IMG/VR virus record: IMGVR_UViG_3300026274_000001
Length of the DNA stretch: 64,000 nucleotides
Origin: a virus
Taxonomy: Duplodnaviria > Caudoviricetes
Strand: one strand, 5' to 3'
Positions 959 through 56,377 of the stretch are shown here, piece by piece (the first letter of the stretch is position 1; each line of letters begins with the position of its first letter). The translations under genes and the position numbers were made by a program. The notes under the pieces were generated by a model. It was not told where the DNA came from, did no database searches, and saw only the letters and a program-made list of their open reading frames with translations.

Positions 959-1000
959 TTTACTTGTGAGTCAAGTGAACGCATCATAGATACATGGTAA
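959..1000 (+). promoter_or_regulatory. early promoter, hairpin family
   Basis: TTTACT-17-CATCAT; CAAGTGA-N5-TCAT; ATGGTAAAC at 994. Confidence 0.75.
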
Positions 1001-1019
1001 ACAACACACGGAGAAATAA

Positions 1020-1469
1020 ATGACTGATCAAGTGAATGTTGCAACTGATGTTAACGGTGTTCGTGAGTGCTTGCCGTTGGGTCCTGTGCACATTTATACG
1101 GTCACGGTGACGAAGTTGCCCTGGGGTGCAGTCGATTCGTGTGTTGCAAGCCTCCCGTTCACTGGTGACGTTACGATCCCGAAAATGTATGTTGACTGGG
1201 CATTGTCGGTTGCTCTTGTTTATGAGTTGTACAAGAAGCTTAACGCGGCACCGATCAACACGGGTATTGTGGCCCTTGTGAAAAGTCTCCGTGACGAAAT
1301 GCATTGCGGATTGACCGAAGCCAAGAAAGTTGCTGACTTGCTGATTGGTCGCAAGAGCGACAAGTACACGAATGCCGGTGGCATTGTTACTGCGTTCATG
1401 TACTACCAGGAAGAAGAAATGACGCTCGCAGAAATCGAAATTCGCAACCAAATGCAAGGACGAAAATGA
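1020..1469 (+). CDS. protein with ribosomal bL12 C-terminal-domain-like motif
   Basis: IVALVKSLRDEMHCGLTEAKKVAD resembles bL12 CTD ([21 protein letters not shown]). Confidence 0.6.
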   Translation: MTDQVNVATDVNGVRECLPLGPVHIYTVTVTKLPWGAVDSCVASLPFTGDVTIPKMYVDWALSVALVYELYKKLNAAPINTGIVALVKSLRDEMHCGLTEAKKVADLLIGRKSDKYTNAGGIVTAFMYYQEEEMTLAEIEIRNQMQGRK

Positions 1470-1906
1470 GCGATGTTCAGTATAAGGTTACACCGATTCA
1501 CTTTCAATTGTTGCTGACAGTGACCCCATCGAATGTAGTTCACAACTGCCAACTTACAATGCCCAACGGCCGAGTTATCGACGTCCCCGCAGTGTTCGTT
1601 GAGTTTGCTCGTACGGTGCGCAACCTAACCGCTATGCTTGACAGGTATGGCCGCCCGCGGGGTATGTCGTCCGGGTTGGTCCCGCTTATTAAAGAAGTAC
1701 GTAGGGCCCTTGATATTGGGCTGTATGATGCCAAGCAACTAGTTGAGGTTCTGGTTGCTCGAGAAGGTTACCAACGAAACTTGGTTACCTATACGTATCT
1801 CGAAGATATGTATGATCCGTATCAAAGCCATATCGATAGCGAACAGGCGGCCGCGGAACTTGACACGGTAAAGCAGATGCTCACCAAAGAAGAAGGTCAT
1901 CAATGA
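1466..1906 (+). CDS. protein with ribosomal bL12 C-terminal-domain-like motif
   Basis: LVPLIKEVRRALDIGLYDAKQLVE; ATGA-coupled to previous gene. Confidence 0.65.
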   Translation: MSDVQYKVTPIHFQLLLTVTPSNVVHNCQLTMPNGRVIDVPAVFVEFARTVRNLTAMLDRYGRPRGMSSGLVPLIKEVRRALDIGLYDAKQLVEVLVAREGYQRNLVTYTYLEDMYDPYQSHIDSEQAAAELDTVKQMLTKEEGHQ

Positions 1907-2708: not shown

Positions 2709-2748
2709 TTGCAACCACGTTCATATGAAACTAATATACGAGCATGGT
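2709..2748 (+). promoter_or_regulatory. early promoter, hairpin family
   Basis: TTGCAA-17-TAATAT; imperfect 13-bp inverted repeat; ATG at 2744. Confidence 0.85.
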
Positions 2749-2767
2749 AAACGCAAAGGAGAACAAA

Positions 2768-3259
2768 ATGACGGGAACAGCATTGACGCAAGCAGAAAAG
2801 GTAGCACGTCGCGAACAACGTGCAGCAGAACGCGAAGCACAAGAAGCTCGTGACAATGAACGTCGCGAAGTGGAGCGTAAGGAACGTATGGAAAAGATGC
2901 CTGGCATTTTGTTCAACCTGATGCTGCGTGCTGAAATGTTGCGGCGTGCGGGGATGCAAATCAGTTGCAATCTACACAACGAAATCCCCAAAAGCATGGC
3001 ATCAAATAGCGACCATGTTGGTAAGGTCGGCTTGGTATTTGTTATCGATCACCGAGCAAAGACGCTACTGAGTGAAGACTGGAATGAAGAAGTTAGCGTG
3101 TCGATCGATGCTGCCAGTTGGGAAGTGGAATCCATCGAAAACAAATTGAATGAACTGCAAGACGAAGCTGATGAAAGGCTGAAGCGTAAAGCTTTGGCTG
3201 ACGAAGCAAAGAAATTGTTGACGCCGGATCAATTGGCCGCCTTGCGCGAATTCTCCTAA
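2768..3259 (+). CDS. hypothetical protein (coiled-coil ends)
   Basis: SD AAGGAG; charged helical termini. Confidence 0.75.
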   Translation: MTGTALTQAEKVARREQRAAEREAQEARDNERREVERKERMEKMPGILFNLMLRAEMLRRAGMQISCNLHNEIPKSMASNSDHVGKVGLVFVIDHRAKTLLSEDWNEEVSVSIDAASWEVESIENKLNELQDEADERLKRKALADEAKKLLTPDQLAALREFS

Positions 3260-3269
3260 GGAGTGCAAC

Positions 3270-3686
3270 ATGAATTACACGATTGTTGGTTACAAGCCTG
3301 ATAGTGCGGAAACTAGCCGAGGCTGTGTGATTAAGCGGTACGACAGTGATCATGTACTGTTCTTCACCACTGACGAGTTGGACTTTGTTGAGAAGTGGGC
3401 TGAATTGCTCTTCAAGAATCTGATTCGTAAGCATGGTGAGAGTGAGTACGAAATTACGGCCTTGGTAAATGGTGAAAATCTGAACGATTTGCCAGACACT
3501 CCAGAACTAAGCTATTACAATCTGGCTAATCAAGCTGATCAGAAATATGTTTTATTGCTTAGGGCGCATGAAGAGCGTGAACAGTTGCAGCAGCAAGCGA
3601 GAGCACGAGCACAGTCATCTGCTATAAGAGAATCAGAGCTTTGGCGACTGGCTGAACTGCGGAAAAAGTACGACGGTACTCAATAG
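3270..3686 (+). CDS. hypothetical protein
   Basis: SD AAGGAG; operon context. Confidence 0.75.
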   Translation: MNYTIVGYKPDSAETSRGCVIKRYDSDHVLFFTTDELDFVEKWAELLFKNLIRKHGESEYEITALVNGENLNDLPDTPELSYYNLANQADQKYVLLLRAHEEREQLQQQARARAQSSAIRESELWRLAELRKKYDGTQ

Positions 3687-3844: not shown

Positions 3845-4654
3845 ATGAAAACAAATCCAACATGGCTAGTTCAAATAACAAGTAGGCACGACACTACTAT
3901 CAAGCAGGAAGTTGAATCACTAACTGAACTTGGCCTACCTTGGAAAGATTTTGGGGTAATTCCATTTACGACCGACATCACGGGACTGGATGCGCCTTAT
4001 ACCAACTTTGTTGTGCGTGGTGGCACCAAAGTATTGTCCATGATTACAGATGATCCTACCTTGTGGTTGAAGGATGGTGTCTTTTATGACAAGGATAAGT
4101 TTGACCAGAATCAATACCAGTCCCTGGGTTTGCCACTCTTAAATGCTGATGCAGAGTTCTTCAACCTCCCTGATTTTCCGTACCTGATGTTTGAGCAGGA
4201 AATGTTCGTGAAGCCTTCCAGTGACTTGAAAGCATTCACAGCCGGAATATTGGAAGTAGGTCAGAGCGTGCAGGAGTTTATTGGCGCACAGATGCATCAA
4301 TCGAATGCATTCTCAGAAATCATTCTAGCCGCTGAAGCAAAGACGGTGATTGATGAGTACCGCTTCTTTGTACTAAACGATCAAGTCATTACTGGGTCAC
4401 AATACCGGGTTAACCAGCAACTGCGCTATACCGCACTTACAAATTCTGCGGAACATGTTTCAGTGCTAAAAGTTGCACAAGATTACGCAAAATTGTATCA
4501 GCCTGCCGAGGTATTCACGCTTGATATTGGTAAGACGGTAGACGGGGTCTACTCTATTATAGAATATAACTGTTTCAATGCATCAGGTTTGTACGCTTGC
4601 GATGTGAATCTGTTGTTTACTACAATCAGTAATTTTGTAAGGTCTCGTGTTTAG
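3845..4654 (+). CDS. ATP-grasp protein, R2K/DUF4343-like
   Basis: FVKPSSDLKAFTAG; EYRFFVLNDQVITGSQYR; FTLDIG; IIEYNCFNASGLY. Confidence 0.8.
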   Translation: MKTNPTWLVQITSRHDTTIKQEVESLTELGLPWKDFGVIPFTTDITGLDAPYTNFVVRGGTKVLSMITDDPTLWLKDGVFYDKDKFDQNQYQSLGLPLLNADAEFFNLPDFPYLMFEQEMFVKPSSDLKAFTAGILEVGQSVQEFIGAQMHQSNAFSEIILAAEAKTVIDEYRFFVLNDQVITGSQYRVNQQLRYTALTNSAEHVSVLKVAQDYAKLYQPAEVFTLDIGKTVDGVYSIIEYNCFNASGLYACDVNLLFTTISNFVRSRV

Positions 4655-4758: not shown

Positions 4759-4795
4759 TTGATTCACTTACCATATGAACGTATCATTAGTGAAT
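4759..4795 (+). promoter_or_regulatory. early promoter, hairpin family
   Basis: TTGATT-17-TATCAT; ATTCACT/AGTGAAT arms; CATATGA-N5-TCAT. Confidence 0.8.
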
Positions 4796-4819
4796 ACACA
4801 AGAGCTAGGGGAGTTGATC

Positions 4820-5275
4820 ATGAGTGAACAAAATGAGTGTAGTGAAGCAGATGCACTTAATGACTACGATGACGAAGATTTTGAATTTGTCAACGGCAAC
4901 GCTGAAGAGGGTGGTGAATTTGTAATCTTCCCCAACAAGCTGCGTGAAGAGGTTGCTCACTCGTTATTGGCTCTACATCATTCAAGAGTGGTTGAGCAAG
5001 AAGATACACGAACACAGGCTGAAGTCATTGCTGACATGAAAGCCCGGTACGTGGTCGCGAAAGCAGCCAAGGTTGGAGAAATCATCGAATGTGCTTGCTG
5101 TGCGAAGAAAGTGGTAAAGACTTCGTATCAGATGGCATTCTGCTCCAACGGCAAGAATAGAAAGAACACCCTGTTGGGAAACAATAACTGCAAGGACCGT
5201 TTCTGGAACTTGACGGATGACAAGCGTCGTCCCTTAGCAATCAAGTTCGTGGAGAAACGTAATGTTAAAGCTTAA
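4820..5275 (+). CDS. hypothetical Zn-binding protein with acidic N-terminus
   Basis: SD AGGGGAG; CACC...C...C. Confidence 0.7.
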   Translation: MSEQNECSEADALNDYDDEDFEFVNGNAEEGGEFVIFPNKLREEVAHSLLALHHSRVVEQEDTRTQAEVIADMKARYVVAKAAKVGEIIECACCAKKVVKTSYQMAFCSNGKNRKNTLLGNNNCKDRFWNLTDDKRRPLAIKFVEKRNVKA

Positions 5276-6337: not shown

Positions 6338-6544
6338 ATGTATAACCCAGAAGATGACCTCTTCAAGTACAAGCAAATACATGACAGTCGTATCGAGGTG
6401 TATTCGGGGGCCGTGATGGTGGGTAACATCGTGAAGCGGGGTGACAAGTACCAATACCTACCCAGCAACAGTAGGCGCAAGACGGGATTTTTCAAAACGT
6501 TAGATGATATAAAAGCATTCATTAATGGTGATGACATGGCGTAA
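6338..6544 (+). CDS. hypothetical protein
   Basis: SD AGGAG. Confidence 0.7.
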   Translation: MYNPEDDLFKYKQIHDSRIEVYSGAVMVGNIVKRGDKYQYLPSNSRRKTGFFKTLDDIKAFINGDDMA

Positions 6545-6548
6545 ATGC

Positions 6549-6600
6549 TTGAACTCCCATTCATATGAATATAGAATGAGCTCCATAGAGGGGCTCATTC
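6549..6600 (+). promoter_or_regulatory. promoter with downstream hairpin
   Basis: TTGAAC-17-TAGAAT with CATATGAA; GAATGAGCTCC/GGGGCTCATTC hairpin 6574-6600. Confidence 0.65.
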
Positions 6601-6615
6601 TATTTGGAGAACGAC

Positions 6616-7032
6616 ATGGGAAAAGTGGTTGCGCCTGAAGTTATTGCTGAACGCACACTAGAAATAGTGCAGCGTATCTCTCGTCACATTGTGGCGATCG
6701 AAGATCCACGTTCAGTGTTTGGATTCAATTTGTGGTTCAAGAATCGATATGTGAACGTCTACATGCGACAAGGACGTCGTGTCAATGTTGATACTCGAGC
6801 TTGGGTGCATACGTTGGAAATTTCTAGCATCAACGTGAAGACTGAAAAGAAAGGCTACTTCACTTCGTTTCTCAACCAAATGGAAAAGCTAGCTGCAACA
6901 CATGGTTTGACTATTCTGGTTGAAAACGTTGCGAACGAACATTTGCAAGCATTCATGCTTAAGCGTGGATATGCAGAATATCGAAGCCCTGGTGGTGGTG
7001 GTGACTGGCCGCCCACATACTGGCAAGCTTGA
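6616..7032 (+). CDS. GNAT-fold acetyltransferase-like protein
   Basis: LEISSINV...KKGYFTSFLNQME...VENVANEHLQAFMLKRGY. Confidence 0.65.
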   Translation: MGKVVAPEVIAERTLEIVQRISRHIVAIEDPRSVFGFNLWFKNRYVNVYMRQGRRVNVDTRAWVHTLEISSINVKTEKKGYFTSFLNQMEKLAATHGLTILVENVANEHLQAFMLKRGYAEYRSPGGGGDWPPTYWQA

Positions 7033-7050
7033 TTCATTAATATAATTGAC

Positions 7051-7074
7051 TTACAAGGTGTGAACACCTTGTAA
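7051..7074. repeat. perfect 10-bp inverted repeat upstream of gene
   Basis: TTACAAGGTG-TGAA-CACCTTGTAA, preceded by TTGAC. Confidence 0.7.
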
Positions 7075-7089
7075 TCTAAGGAGAAATAC

Positions 7090-7329
7090 ATGCTTTTCAA
7101 AGGCAAGATGCGAATCGAAAGTGGTGTGGGTACATTCATCGATCTTACCAATATCGAAACAAACGCAGTTAAAGTTCTGACTTACGAGTGGTCAAAAAAG
7201 AAAAAAGAGCGTGATGGTGTGGTACCTCAAGTCTCAAAGATTCCAGGGTTTGTGTTCCTGTTCACTACAAACAATGATCATTTCTTTGAGTGCGATTTGG
7301 CAAATTTCATTGCTCTAATGAATTCTTGA
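7090..7329 (+). CDS. hypothetical protein
   Basis: SD AAGGAG. Confidence 0.7.
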   Translation: MLFKGKMRIESGVGTFIDLTNIETNAVKVLTYEWSKKKKERDGVVPQVSKIPGFVFLFTTNNDHFFECDLANFIALMNS

Positions 7330-7352
7330 TGATGTATAAGTTGAAATTATAG

Positions 7353-7387
7353 TAGATTCATTTAACAAGTGAATATACCATATGAAT
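7353..7387 (+). promoter_or_regulatory. early promoter, hairpin family
   Basis: TAGATT-17-TACCAT; CAAGTGAA; ATTCAT/ATGAAT arms. Confidence 0.65.
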
Positions 7388-7409
7388 AACAAAACAACCG
7401 GTAACTACA

Positions 7410-7670
7410 GTGAAACACAAATACATTGTATTCAAGGATGGCAATCTAGAAGATATCATCACATTCTCGGAGTTGATGGATCATAGTCAAGCTGCCCGTG
7501 CACTGGATCGTGACCGCATTATTTCTGCAGGATTTATGGATATTGCGGTAAACGAGCAAGGCAAGCTTGACGTGACGTGTTTCGGTAAAAGTATTACACT
7601 TGAACTACAATCGCGTGGTGACCTGGATAAACGCGTGGCTATGTCGAGACTCTATGGGGAGAGCTACTGA
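7410..7670 (+). CDS. hypothetical protein
   Basis: GTG start; coupled to next gene. Confidence 0.65.
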   Translation: MKHKYIVFKDGNLEDIITFSELMDHSQAARALDRDRIISAGFMDIAVNEQGKLDVTCFGKSITLELQSRGDLDKRVAMSRLYGESY

Positions 7671-7885
7671 TGAAAGGCGTCAACTATCACCGAGATGCAT
7701 TTGAAAAGCAGTTTCGATGGCTAAACTTGCGCCGAGTACCGGTCGATGCTGATGAACACGCAGGCAAATATAAAGGGGAACTCGCTCTAATTGCCTGGGA
7801 GGCCTGGTGTGGAGCGCTTGAGCTTAGCTTCAAACAACAGAAGGTCACAAAGAAACAGGCCCCGAAAAATGAGTCAGATCACTAA
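7670..7885 (+). CDS. hypothetical protein
   Basis: TGATG coupling; AWEAWCGA phage-type motif. Confidence 0.65.
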   Translation: MKGVNYHRDAFEKQFRWLNLRRVPVDADEHAGKYKGELALIAWEAWCGALELSFKQQKVTKKQAPKNESDH

Positions 7886-8363
7886 AGCGATATACGATTA
7901 TATCGCAGCGCACCCTAACGTAACTTCAATCGAGGTTGCTAACGGGTTGCAAGCGCAAAGCAATGCTATTGGTATGAAGGCTGGGTCGGTTATTTCATTG
8001 ATCAGTCTGCTGACTAAGGCTGAATTGCTGCGAAGCTCGAAAGCGCACAAAGGTGCCGCAAGATTATCTATCGACCGAGTTTACGACGAAGCTGTACTCA
8101 AGGCGCATCGACAAAGCGTGTATAAAAAGCGAATCGCACGCAATGAATATAGCAAAACAAAAGCAATCGAATTATCCAAATTGTCCGTTTTGGAAAGTTT
8201 GCCAACCATAGTAGATACCGAGTATGGTGTAGCCAAGCATACATTTATGTTACGTCCTGGACTGGCTATACAATTTTCGTTACCACTAGACTTGACTATT
8301 GACGAAGCAAATAGACTGGCGAACTGCATTAGAATTTTGCCATTTGGCACAAAGTTTGACTGA
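7869..8363 (+). CDS. putative winged-helix DNA-binding protein
   Basis: IYDYIAAHPNVTSIEVANGL...LISLLTKAELL. Confidence 0.6.
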   Translation: MSQITKAIYDYIAAHPNVTSIEVANGLQAQSNAIGMKAGSVISLISLLTKAELLRSSKAHKGAARLSIDRVYDEAVLKAHRQSVYKKRIARNEYSKTKAIELSKLSVLESLPTIVDTEYGVAKHTFMLRPGLAIQFSLPLDLTIDEANRLANCIRILPFGTKFD

Positions 8364-8369
8364 AACTGC

Positions 8370-8412
8370 TTGCATGCCTTGCCATATGAACTTATCATTT
8401 GAACATGGTAAA
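8370..8412 (+). promoter_or_regulatory. early promoter, hairpin family
   Basis: TTGCAT-17-TATCAT; CATATGA-N5-TCATTTG; ATGGTAAAC at 8405. Confidence 0.88.
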
Positions 8413-8431
8413 CAACTGTGGAGCGCAAACT

Positions 8432-10486: not shown

Positions 10487-10525
10487 TTGGTTTGCCAGAT
10501 GAACCTATAATAGGTGTATGGTAAA
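10483..10525 (+). promoter_or_regulatory. early promoter, hairpin family
   Basis: TTGATT-17-TATAAT; TTTGCCA/TGGTAAA arms; ATG at 10518. Confidence 0.85.
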
Positions 10526-10542
10526 CAAACAAGGAACATCAA

Positions 10543-10977: not shown

Positions 10978-11017
10978 TTGCAGCCACGATCAGATGAATA
11001 TATCATTTGAGCATGGT
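10978..11017 (+). promoter_or_regulatory. early promoter, hairpin family
   Basis: TTGCAG-17-TATCAT; CAGATGA-N5-TCATTTG; ATG at 11013. Confidence 0.88.
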
Positions 11018-11038
11018 AAACAACTGGGAGAACTAATC

Positions 11039-13867: not shown

Positions 13868-13908
13868 TTGATTGTTTGCCATATGAATGTATCATAATCA
13901 ATATGGTA
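13868..13908 (+). promoter_or_regulatory. early promoter, hairpin family
   Basis: TTGATT-16-TATCAT; TGCCATAT/ATATGGTA arms; ATG at 13903 in frame with gene. Confidence 0.85.
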
Positions 13909-13926
13909 CACGACAAGGAGAACAAC

Positions 13927-15366: not shown

Positions 15367-15403
15367 TGTACCGCTCAAGTGAGTTTATCATTTGAATATG
15401 GTA
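15363..15403 (+). promoter_or_regulatory. early promoter, hairpin family
   Basis: TTGATG-17-TATCAT; CAAGTGA-N5-TCATTTG; ATG at 15398. Confidence 0.88.
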
Positions 15404-15420
15404 AACACACAGGAGCGGTA

Positions 15421-16417: not shown

Positions 16418-16454
16418 TTCTTAGCTCAAGTGAACGTATCATTTGAATATGGTA
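16414..16454 (+). promoter_or_regulatory. early promoter, hairpin family
   Basis: TTGATT-17-TATCAT; near-copy of the 15363 element; ATG at 16449. Confidence 0.88.
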
Positions 16455-16471
16455 AACGCATAGGAGTTTAA

Positions 16472-32840: not shown

Positions 32841-32882
32841 TTGACTGGTTACCAGGTGAGTGTATCATTTGATACATGGTAA
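32841..32882 (+). promoter_or_regulatory. early promoter, hairpin family
   Basis: TTGACT-16-TATCAT; CAGGTGA-N5-TCATTTG; ATG at 32876 in frame with gene. Confidence 0.88.
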
Positions 32883-32902
32883 ACAACGTTAAGGAGCTAC
32901 AA

Positions 32903-41484: not shown

Positions 41485-41499
41485 TTCGTTCTCCTTTCT

Positions 41500-41543
41500 G
41501 TTTACCATGTTCAAATGATACATTCACCTAAACATGGTTGCAA
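41500..41543 (-). promoter_or_regulatory. early promoter, hairpin family
   Basis: TTGCAA-17-TATCAT; 15-bp stem with 3 G-T pairs; ATG at 41508. Confidence 0.9.
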
Positions 41544-52639: not shown

Positions 52640-52656
52640 TTCTGTTCCCCTTGTTT

Positions 52657-52700
52657 GTTTACCATGTTCAAATGATACATTCACCTAAACATGGTTACAA
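52657..52700 (-). promoter_or_regulatory. early promoter, hairpin family (41-bp identical to 41499-41539)
   Basis: TTGTAA-17-TATCAT; ATG at 52665. Confidence 0.9.
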
Positions 52701-54352: not shown

Positions 54353-56377
54353 TTAGTTCACAGTATTTTCCATCGAGTCATCTAAAATTTTCTGTACTTT
54401 GTTATAATCTACTGGCTTTGTTAAGTGATAGTCAAAACCTGCATTGAATGCCATCTTCTTATCAGTATCTTGCCCATACCCCGTGACTGCTACAATTACT
54501 ATTCCTCTCAGCTTGGGATCTGAACGGATCTGCTGAGCAACTTCATATCCGGTTAGAATCGGTAGGCCTATGTCCAGCAGCACCACGTTGGGATATGTAT
54601 GTTCTACTGCGGTTAAAGCGGTAGGGCCGTCGTACGCCTTGGTTACGACGTGGCCTGACATTTCGACAAGCATTGCTAGACTATCTGCGGCATCAGTGTT
54701 GTCATCCACAACAAGCACTCGTAATTCCCTCGTTGCTCTGCGAGTTTCTTGGGGTATATTATTCTCAATTGGAAATGACGGCGCTCGAACTATTGGTAAA
54801 GTAACAACAAATTCACTTCCTTTACCCAATACGCTATAAATGTCAACGTGGCCACCGTGCATTTCAACTAGTCTATGGACTAACGCAAGCCCGATACCCA
54901 AACCGCCGCGAGAACGATCTAGTGACCGTTCTGATTGCGAAAACAAGTCAAAGATTCTAGGTAGTAGTTCAGGCGCAATGCCCACCCCAGTGTCACTTAA
55001 TCGTATAACGCATTCTTTCTTGTCATCAAGTGTCACACTTAGCGCAATTTTCCCACCATTGTTGGTGTACTTTGCCGCATTGGTAAGCAGATTAACGATG
55101 ATTTGTTCCAAACGAGCTGCATCTGCATGTAGCCAAATTGGTTCGAGGGAAAGAGTCACGGTTAAATCATGCTCATGTTCGATAATGAGCGGCATTGCTG
55201 AAGCAACCGCGTTTTCAATTACACCGTTCATTAGAACGAGATCGTTTCTAAGTTGTACACGTCCGGTAGTTATGCGCGCCACTTCCATCAAGTCATCAAC
55301 TAACCGAGTCAATTGCACAACTTGACGTTCAATCATAGTTCTAGCTTGATGTTGAAGGGGATCTTCGTCCTGCTGTAACCTTAGAATTTGAACGGCATTG
55401 GAAATGGGAGCAAGCGGATTTCGTAATTCATGACTAAGCATCGCCAGGAATTCATCTTTTCTACGATGTAAATCAGCGAGTGTTTCAGCCTGCTCTTGCA
55501 GCTGACGTTCCATTACGAAGCGTTCGCTGATGTCACGTATGTTGCATTGCGCAACTGCATGTTTTCCCACCAGGTATATGTTGCTTATGAATTCAACTTC
55601 AACTGTTTTGCCATTTTTTGATTCTAATGGCAAGTGTTCATAACGCACATACCCTTGTTTTTGTAATTCAGCATACATGTTCAAACTAGCTTGCTTATCG
55701 CCGAAGAATCCAAACTCCCAAAGCTCATGATTCATAAGCTCATCGTGATCATAACCAAGCAAATCAGATATAAATTTGTTTGCGTCAATGATTTTTAATG
55801 AAGTAGCGTCAAGTACTAGGATTCCATCCTTTGCACTTTGAAACAGTCGTCGATATTGCAATTCGGATGTCTGTACCGCTATCGCATCTAATTGTCGTTC
55901 AGTGGCATCTCTAAAGATCAAAACTGCCCCAGTAGTACCGCTTTTAGTGCTCCTGATTGGTGCCGCACTATCATCTATTGGCCGCTCTGTTCCATCTTTC
56001 GCAATCAAGAGAGCGTATTTCCCAATATCGGTTATTTCATTTATTGCTAGAGCTAATGATATTGGCTCTTCAATTGCTTTTCTGGTTTTGCTATTGATTA
56101 GCCTAAAGACCTTGGACAATGGCAGGCCTACTGCTTCTTCCTGTGTCCAACCAGTCAATGCTTGCGCTACTGGGTTCAAAAATACGATGACGCCATTGGC
56201 GTCAGTTGTTATTACCGCATCACCAATACTGGCGAGTGTTGCATCAAGTAAGTCGCGCTGTATGCGAACAGACTCGATTGTTTCTTCAACGGGATTGATC
56301 ATGTGAAGCTCCGAAGCAACGTCAGATCTACGAAGTGATTCAATACTTTCATCACTAGAAGCTTGATACTGTAGCAC
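54353..56377 (-). CDS. hybrid sensor histidine kinase (PAS-PAC, PAS, HisKA, HATPase_c, receiver)
   Basis: H-box LSHELRNPL; NLLTNAAKYT; DTGVGI; GGLGIGL; receiver VVDDN, LLDIGLP, TKP; start uncertain (56377 GTG or 56302 ATG). Confidence 0.92.
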   Translation of the reverse strand: MLQYQASSDESIESLRRSDVASELHMINPVEETIESVRIQRDLLDATLASIGDAVITTDANGVIVFLNPVAQALTGWTQEEAVGLPLSKVFRLINSKTRKAIEEPISLALAINEITDIGKYALLIAKDGTERPIDDSAAPIRSTKSGTTGAVLIFRDATERQLDAIAVQTSELQYRRLFQSAKDGILVLDATSLKIIDANKFISDLLGYDHDELMNHELWEFGFFGDKQASLNMYAELQKQGYVRYEHLPLESKNGKTVEVEFISNIYLVGKHAVAQCNIRDISERFVMERQLQEQAETLADLHRRKDEFLAMLSHELRNPLAPISNAVQILRLQQDEDPLQHQARTMIERQVVQLTRLVDDLMEVARITTGRVQLRNDLVLMNGVIENAVASAMPLIIEHEHDLTVTLSLEPIWLHADAARLEQIIVNLLTNAAKYTNNGGKIALSVTLDDKKECVIRLSDTGVGIAPELLPRIFDLFSQSERSLDRSRGGLGIGLALVHRLVEMHGGHVDIYSVLGKGSEFVVTLPIVRAPSFPIENNIPQETRRATRELRVLVVDDNTDAADSLAMLVEMSGHVVTKAYDGPTALTAVEHTYPNVVLLDIGLPILTGYEVAQQIRSDPKLRGIVIVAVTGYGQDTDKKMAFNAGFDYHLTKPVDYNKVQKILDDSMENTVN

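Follow-up and report, generated by a model that had tools for sequence, protein, structure and literature searches.

Near one end of a phage sequence of 64,000 nucleotides (the whole stretch analysed here, referred to as the window), two overlapping genes encode small proteins in which a preliminary description had noticed a helix motif of ribosomal protein bL12's C-terminal domain (CTD). The locus raises the question of whether these proteins carry bL12 domains fused to different partners and addressed to host translation factors as decoys or adaptors, or whether they are proteins of another kind in which the resemblance has a different meaning.

A coupled gene pair from a rare family

The two genes and the one that follows them lie on the plus strand: ORF A at 1020-1469 (149 aa), ORF B at 1466-1906 (146 aa) and ORF C at 1903-2301 (132 aa), with A and B both intact. 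The stop codon of A and the start codon of B share the ATGA at 1466-1469, confirming that the pair is coupled in tandem as the preliminary description had it, and the B/C junction is likewise an ATGA that couples C translationally to B. A Shine-Dalgarno-like purine run is found a few bases 5' of each of the three starts. Calculated against two related contigs, L001 and L002, dN/dS was 0.07 for A, 0.12-0.15 for B and 0.10-0.13 for C; values of 0.07-0.15 indicate purifying selection, thus A, B and C are all real, constrained genes.

BLASTP aligned A with B over 130 residues at 24% identity (E 3e-12), and the AF2 models of both proteins share one topology, with three N-terminal strands, a long helix, the two helices of the motif, one or more C-terminal strands and a final helix. 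The proteins are full-length paralogues, so that the motif does not sit within otherwise unrelated sequence, and the pair, earlier thought to represent different fusions, consists of duplicates of one gene. The pair was found only in the closest relatives of the window, L001 and L002, while most relatives hold a single copy, and it is a lineage-specific tandem duplication of one orphan phage gene. It is very probable that A and B are tandem duplicates of one gene of about 140-150 codons belonging to a rare family of large metagenomic phage-like contigs, that they share a sigma70-like promoter with C and are joined by stop/start coupling, and that each has one predicted compact alpha/beta domain.

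The family is small. Exhaustive HMMER screening of 1.84 billion cluster representatives returned nine proteins at E <=1e-3, representing nine 50%-identity clusters, of which seven are full-length relatives of 126-149 aa. A word-indexed search of 5.8 billion clusters recovered two close relatives of B only, to which the family profile added none, and GenBank phages gave neither a DNA nor a protein match for the region, A or B. All family members are metagenomic and show pairwise identities of 23-35%; some of them reside on the largest contigs, of 224 and 327 kb, which share a dense small-gene layout with the window, in which the PHROG families phrog_7313, phrog_850 and phrog_12711 were strongly matched. 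A small tree groups B with the family member P0009 and A with the rest, with weak support and with P0009 as a long branch.

Gene C accompanies the family gene in the closer relatives, where it is conserved at 55-96% identity. It trails the family gene in L001-L005, and the arrangement in L003 and in L004/L005 is one family gene followed by the C homologue; in L006/L007 an unrelated gene takes the place of C after the family gene. ORF C had no Pfam match, no PDB match and no firm Atlas assignment, the weak Atlas leads being Myosin_N, Agenet and PemK-like, with a hint of a small SH3-like beta-barrel at the N-terminus. The metatranscriptome run X6 contains a variant strain that differs at 1824-1992, from the last part of B into the first part of C, by 19 substitutions and by a 1-bp deletion and a 1-bp insertion that compensate each other (1838/1840), which reveals microdiversity at the B/C junction.

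The 224-kb contig L004 encodes, in addition, an extra paralogue of 112 aa (L004:5294-5632), shorter and degenerate, two genes downstream of its family gene. Its motif reads IRLLR...DIRAAR, with K changed to R, GL to DI and EAK to AAR, which makes it a natural variant useful for asking which residues matter.

The helix pair and its structural setting

The motif resembling helix 4, turn and helix 5 of bL12 is present in both proteins, as had been described. In A it is encoded at 1263-1340 on the plus strand (residues 82-107, GIVALVKSLRDEMHCGLTEAKKVADL), with helices predicted at residues 83-94 and 98-110; the B copy lies at 1673-1750 on the same strand (residues 70-95, GLVPLIKEVRRALDIGLYDAKQLVEV), where it comprises K76, R79, L86 and K90 and helices predicted at residues 71-82 and 86-98. 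Comparison with Pfam PF00542, proposed in the preliminary description as a check, was favourable in part: B matched with E 2.6e-4 over residues 72-95 (profile positions 13-36 of 67) and seven of the 12 family members scanned singly matched at E<1 (best E 1.6e-4), but the 21.7 bits of B fall below the gathering score of 25.9 bits, and A alone had no Pfam match. Besides PF00542, no Pfam family recurred among the 12 members.

Profile comparisons pointed to the same segment. The best 11 matches of the family profile against the PDB were all bL12 chains (E 0.03-0.67), and these alignments always placed family residues 80-103 on bL12 chain residues 65-88 or equivalent. Aligned by hhalign, the family matched E. 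coli bL12 at 81% (E 1.3e-5) and a 7-sequence bL12 alignment, made of E. coli rplL and six rplL-like genes from the phage collection, at 90% with a score of 41.9, family residues 79-107 lying on bL12 62-90. As controls, the reversed family alignment reached 11.5, and shuffling its columns 200 times gave 10.1 +/- 1.7 (at most 15.1); since 41.9 is far above both controls, the local bL12 similarity is not due to chance. It spans about 24-29 residues and stops at the two helices, and no alignment was obtained beyond bL12 residue 90. What had been called a bL12 CTD-like motif therefore stands as a specific match to helices 4-5, but one that covers only 26-29 residues, remains below the Pfam cut-off and comes without a bL12 N-terminal domain. 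Judged from sequence and models, the proteins carry a genuine helix 4-5 motif but do not belong to the bL12 CTD family by Pfam score or predicted topology. The likeness may be convergence on a common helix-Gly-Leu-helix motif.

Besides Met1, K88 and R91 are the only residues invariant across the family, and three of the five near-invariant residues (G82, L98 and K102) also fall inside the motif. The helix motif is the most conserved part of the family and, as far as residue conservation indicates, its functional core. K88, R91, L98 and K102 align with bL12 K70, R73, L80 and K84, V84 and V87 with V66 and I69, and G97, E100 and A101 with G79, E82 and A83, and the family is identical to bL12 at K70, R73, G79, L80, E82, A83 and K84. 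At the column of bL12 K81 most family members have an aromatic residue, and there are differences at several flanking positions. NMR titration has shown that EF-G and EF4 contact bL12 CTD residues 66-70 and 80-85 (PMC3505967), so that the register of the motif places the conserved residues of the family on the mapped GTPase contact surface of bL12. Furthermore, helices 4/5 of bL12 bind helix D of EF-Tu according to the title of Kothe 2004, and a motif common to L7/L12 and EF-Ts was proposed to take part in EF-Tu interaction according to that of Wieden 2001 (both cited in PMC12179292). The bL12 regions around K95 and L106, which respond to uL11 in NMR and mutagenesis (PMC3505967), have no counterpart in the family.

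Modelled by AF2 with the family alignment, A reached pLDDT 80.3 and pTM 0.70 and B pLDDT 70.9; the predicted order of strands and helices is b-b-b-a-a-a-b-b-a for A and similar for B. In the bL12 CTD, three strands forming one sheet and three helices follow each other as b-a-a-b-a-b. This difference in element order puts the helix pair of A and B in another predicted structural context, and its conserved K/R face may be buried. Foldseek found no match above noise in the PDB for either model. VIA-align searched widely gave a best Z of 6.1 on 47 helical residues only, and in a second look Z of about 5 to separase/CHAT-type domains over 85-90 residues, both at noise level. The ESM Atlas searched by shape returned TM of at most 0.41, BFVD nothing above noise, and the ESM Atlas searched by features no usable match for protein A. 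The preliminary description had held that a predicted fold unlike both the bL12 CTD and ClpS, together with a lack of translation factor binding, would speak against its reading; as to the fold, neither bL12 nor ClpS appeared in the lists of the fold searches, an absence that does not exclude either of them.

Promoter repeats and genomic neighbourhood

The A-B-C block is preceded by a sigma70-like promoter at 959-987 (plus strand), composed of a -35 element TTTACT (959-964), a 17-nt spacer and a -10 element CATCAT (982-987). The conserved leader ATGGTAAACAA at 994-1023 (plus strand) begins 7 nt past the -10 element. Its ATG starts a frame of nine codons (MVNNTRRNK), the TGA of which overlaps the start codon of A, and GGAG at 1010-1013 is the Shine-Dalgarno sequence. 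Transcription probably starts at the leader, at about 994. The genes had been placed behind a hairpin promoter, of which the promoter-like site was recovered; the 5-bp hairpin itself (ACTTG-TGAGT-CAAGT, 962-976, plus strand), single in the window, lies within the -35 element and spacer of this promoter and is not conserved in the relatives L003 and L004. What relatives keep upstream of A is AAATAATTCA..., ATCAT and CATGGTAAACAA.

The same arrangement recurs across the window as TTGCAA-N17-TATCAT-N6-ATGGTAAACAA, followed by AGGAG and then the ATG of the gene, the copy in front of A being a weaker one; the 17-nt spacer of the recurrent promoter carries a GTGAA/ATGAA box. The pattern ATCAT-N4-A-N-ATGGTAAACAA has 11 matches in the window versus 0.42 expected. 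By sequence pattern, copies of the promoter were located on the plus strand at 537-558, 983-1004, 2733-2754, 8394-8415, 10507-10528, 11002-11023, 13892-13913, 15387-15408, 16438-16459 and 32865-32886, and on the minus strand at 41498-41519 and 52655-52676. The ATG of the leader would fall at or beside the 5' end of the mRNA. The idea that it starts a conserved peptide was considered and rejected: the reading frame of the downstream gene is kept in only about 6 of 13 copies, while the remaining ones have a separate frame of 4-18 codons. What is conserved is thus the nucleotide sequence.

Early expression of the pair, assumed in the preliminary description, would be in keeping with a promoter of host type. 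Three soil metatranscriptome libraries yielded contigs over A, B and C, and equally over the whole 20 kb compared, at depths like those of the DNA run; given such even coverage at DNA-like depth, DNA carry-over is possible and these contigs do not prove transcription. The contigs of four runs (the three RNA libraries and one DNA run) join position 560 to 976, skipping 415 bp and removing the gene for a 130-aa protein at 548-940, which is located between two promoter copies; L001 is arranged alike. Other joints between promoter copies (558/8393, 1005/8379 and 2771/10995) may reflect tangles in the assembly graph. Gene cassettes seem to be gained and lost by recombination at the promoter repeats.

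Downstream of the block, positions 3845-4654 on the plus strand encode an R2K-clade ATP-grasp protein (PF18299/PF14243, phrog_7313). In L003 and L004, two R2K-clade ATP-grasp paralogues bracket the family gene (L003:2283-3080 and 6415-7224; L004:2365-3156 and 7282-8088), and an R2K ATP-grasp gene lies one to two genes upstream of it in L001, L003 and L004; the association is absent in L006/L007. R2K enzymes are predicted protein-modifying peptide ligases and were proposed to act in phage-host conflict; in eukaryotes they are represented by CDC123, which binds eIF2-gamma, a GTPase resembling EF-Tu (PMC4431377). The neighbouring genes at 102-500, 2237-2695, 2744-3259, 3270-3686 and 4775-5275 matched no Pfam family. 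Moreover, no Walker-A (P-loop) protein is encoded in the whole window, which leaves no phage GTPase partner nearby. At some distance, positions 54353-56377 on the minus strand encode a hybrid sensor histidine kinase of 673 aa (PAS, HisKA, HATPase_c and receiver domains) in this presumed phage genome.

Relation to known systems and possible partners

The statement that bL12-like domains have been reported in phages is borne out by the work of Mizuno et al. 2019, who described them, either as entire small proteins or as parts of proteins of up to 724 aa, in viral metagenomes and seven cultivated phages, identified them by Pfam and HHpred with probabilities of 96-99.9%, and suggested that they might offer interfaces for translation factors (PMC6375957). 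Their examples include small proteins of the Ralstonia phage RSB3/RSJ5 type and bL12 domains in large N4-like phage proteins (PMC6375957). Using E. coli bL12 as query, tblastn recovered phage bL12 proteins of these known types, among them those of Enterobacter phage SonariX and Ralstonia phage RSJ5. As controls for PF00542, E. coli bL12 scored 107.7 bits (positions 1-67) and the SonariX large protein 58.7 bits (positions 9-67). ORF7 of RSJ5, a hypothetical protein of 92 aa encoded near the start of the record and a close counterpart of the RSB3 entry of Mizuno et al., scored 39.8 bits over positions 4-37 only, and hhalign aligned it with our family at 83%; its restricted match indicates that half-domains of helices 4-5 already exist in known phage proteins. 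Two hypothetical proteins with bL12-CTD-like segments are the product of gene 3 of Streptomyces phage Anedea (L018; 158 aa), a record with two matched places, and the SonariX large protein (L009).

The proteins described by Mizuno et al. are phage-encoded, as our family probably is, and like it they have no stalk-anchoring N-terminal domain and keep the K, R, GL and EAK of helices 4-5. Unlike RSJ5 ORF7 and the SonariX protein, which pass the Pfam cut-off (39.8 and 58.7 bits), this family reaches at most 21.7 bits, and its motif lies mid-way in a predicted alpha/beta domain that is larger (about 140 aa) and has no recognised fold. Tandem duplication is a further feature of this family relative to the Mizuno-type proteins, whose bL12 domains were found in cultivated phages only in genomes <80 kb, whereas this family occurs on contigs >220 kb. 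With bL12 itself, the family shares 26-29 residues of CTD helices 4-5 and a helix-turn-helix predicted at the same positions, but it has no N-terminal domain, no hinge and nothing of the CTD past residue 90, and its predicted element order differs. The N-terminal domain of EF-Ts carries the pattern LVKELRxxTGAGxxDCKKAL (residues 6-26) in the same register on family residues 84-104; this match is much weaker (probability 11.7%, E 0.0025), and the rest of EF-Ts is without counterpart. An orphan jumbo-phage protein that acts on host translation right after infection has a precedent in PhiKZ014, an early protein that binds the 50S subunit and clamps 5S rRNA at the central protuberance (PMC10914614). 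The family searches brought up no sequence relation to PhiKZ014, which has no bL12 motif and is supported by experiment, while A and B are known here from sequence and models.

Because the conserved residues coincide with those by which bL12 contacts the G domains of GTPases, we tentatively propose that a translational GTPase of the host (EF-Tu, EF-G, IF2 or RF3) could dock on the helix pair, a plausible reading that we place somewhat short of an even chance. If so, A and B would act after infection by titrating a translation factor or redirecting it, with the remainder of the phage-specific domain adding affinity or a second function, and the two copies may have diverged toward different factors or toward the factors of different hosts. 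A role as decoy or adaptor is purely an inference; a single bL12 CTD binds EF-G and EF4 weakly, and with a Kd of only 0.1-0.4 mM (PMC3505967) a simple decoy is not obviously effective. Complex prediction of A with E. coli EF-Tu (alignment A1) gave a score of 0.00; run without controls and with E. coli as stand-in host, it counts neither way. By analogy with CDC123 and eIF2-gamma, A and B might also serve as adaptors that hold a host translational GTPase while the neighbouring R2K ligase adds a peptide tag, which we consider highly improbable; if true, the pairing of adaptor and ligase would be a new kind of host-translation takeover by a phage.

The same helix pair may instead be a structural element, or a dock for some other partner, for instance C, a different phage protein or a host protein outside translation, with the bL12 likeness arising by convergence or from an old, repurposed capture and implying no translation-factor link. 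We regard this as only slightly less probable than docking of a translational GTPase. It would account for a bL12 match that is short and sub-threshold, for a predicted fold that is not recognisably that of the bL12 CTD and was not returned as such by any fold search, and for the aromatic residues at the K81 column and the differing flanks, and the tight coupling of gene C in closer relatives offers it a candidate partner. However, conservation within the family, whether complete or nearly so, falls on the charged K, R and K typical of bL12 and not just on core hydrophobics, the profile-profile score is far above that of the reversed and shuffled controls, and L006/L007 lack C beside the family gene, which shows that it is not obligate as a partner.

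That A and B are a phage bL12 which replaces the host's own protein in the ribosomal stalk is very improbable, even though a peptide of one phage bL12-domain protein was found in ribosome preparations (Mizuno et al., PMC6375957). PF16320, the N-terminal dimerisation and uL10-binding domain, had no match in A or B at E <=10 or in the 12 members at E <=1, although E. coli bL12, the positive control, matched it at 2.5e-16 in the same library; lacking this uL10-binding domain, A and B cannot sit in the stalk. Furthermore, only 24-29 residues of the CTD are matched, and the uL11-responsive regions (K95, L106) are not among them. ClpS belongs to the same fold superfamily as the bL12 CTD, and the preliminary description had remarked on these related folds. 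This remark is all that speaks for A and B as ClpS-like adaptors directing substrates to a Clp protease, and none of our results points to ClpS: its Pfam family was matched neither by A or B at E <=10 nor by any member at E <=1, and the segment matched is the bL12-specific helix pair. Of all the explanations considered, this is the one we find least probable.

Thus the locus provides a sequence motif that is well supported, in a rare orphan family, and of a kind already reported in phages; the family of A and B is a real but modest addition to the phage bL12-like proteins first reported in 2019. If the helix pair does dock a translational GTPase, phages would have grafted only the factor-binding surface of the stalk, about 26 residues, onto an unrelated scaffold, and such a protein could provide a compact natural probe or inhibitor of factor recruitment. 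Docking would also be one more sign that jumbo phages re-tool host translation.
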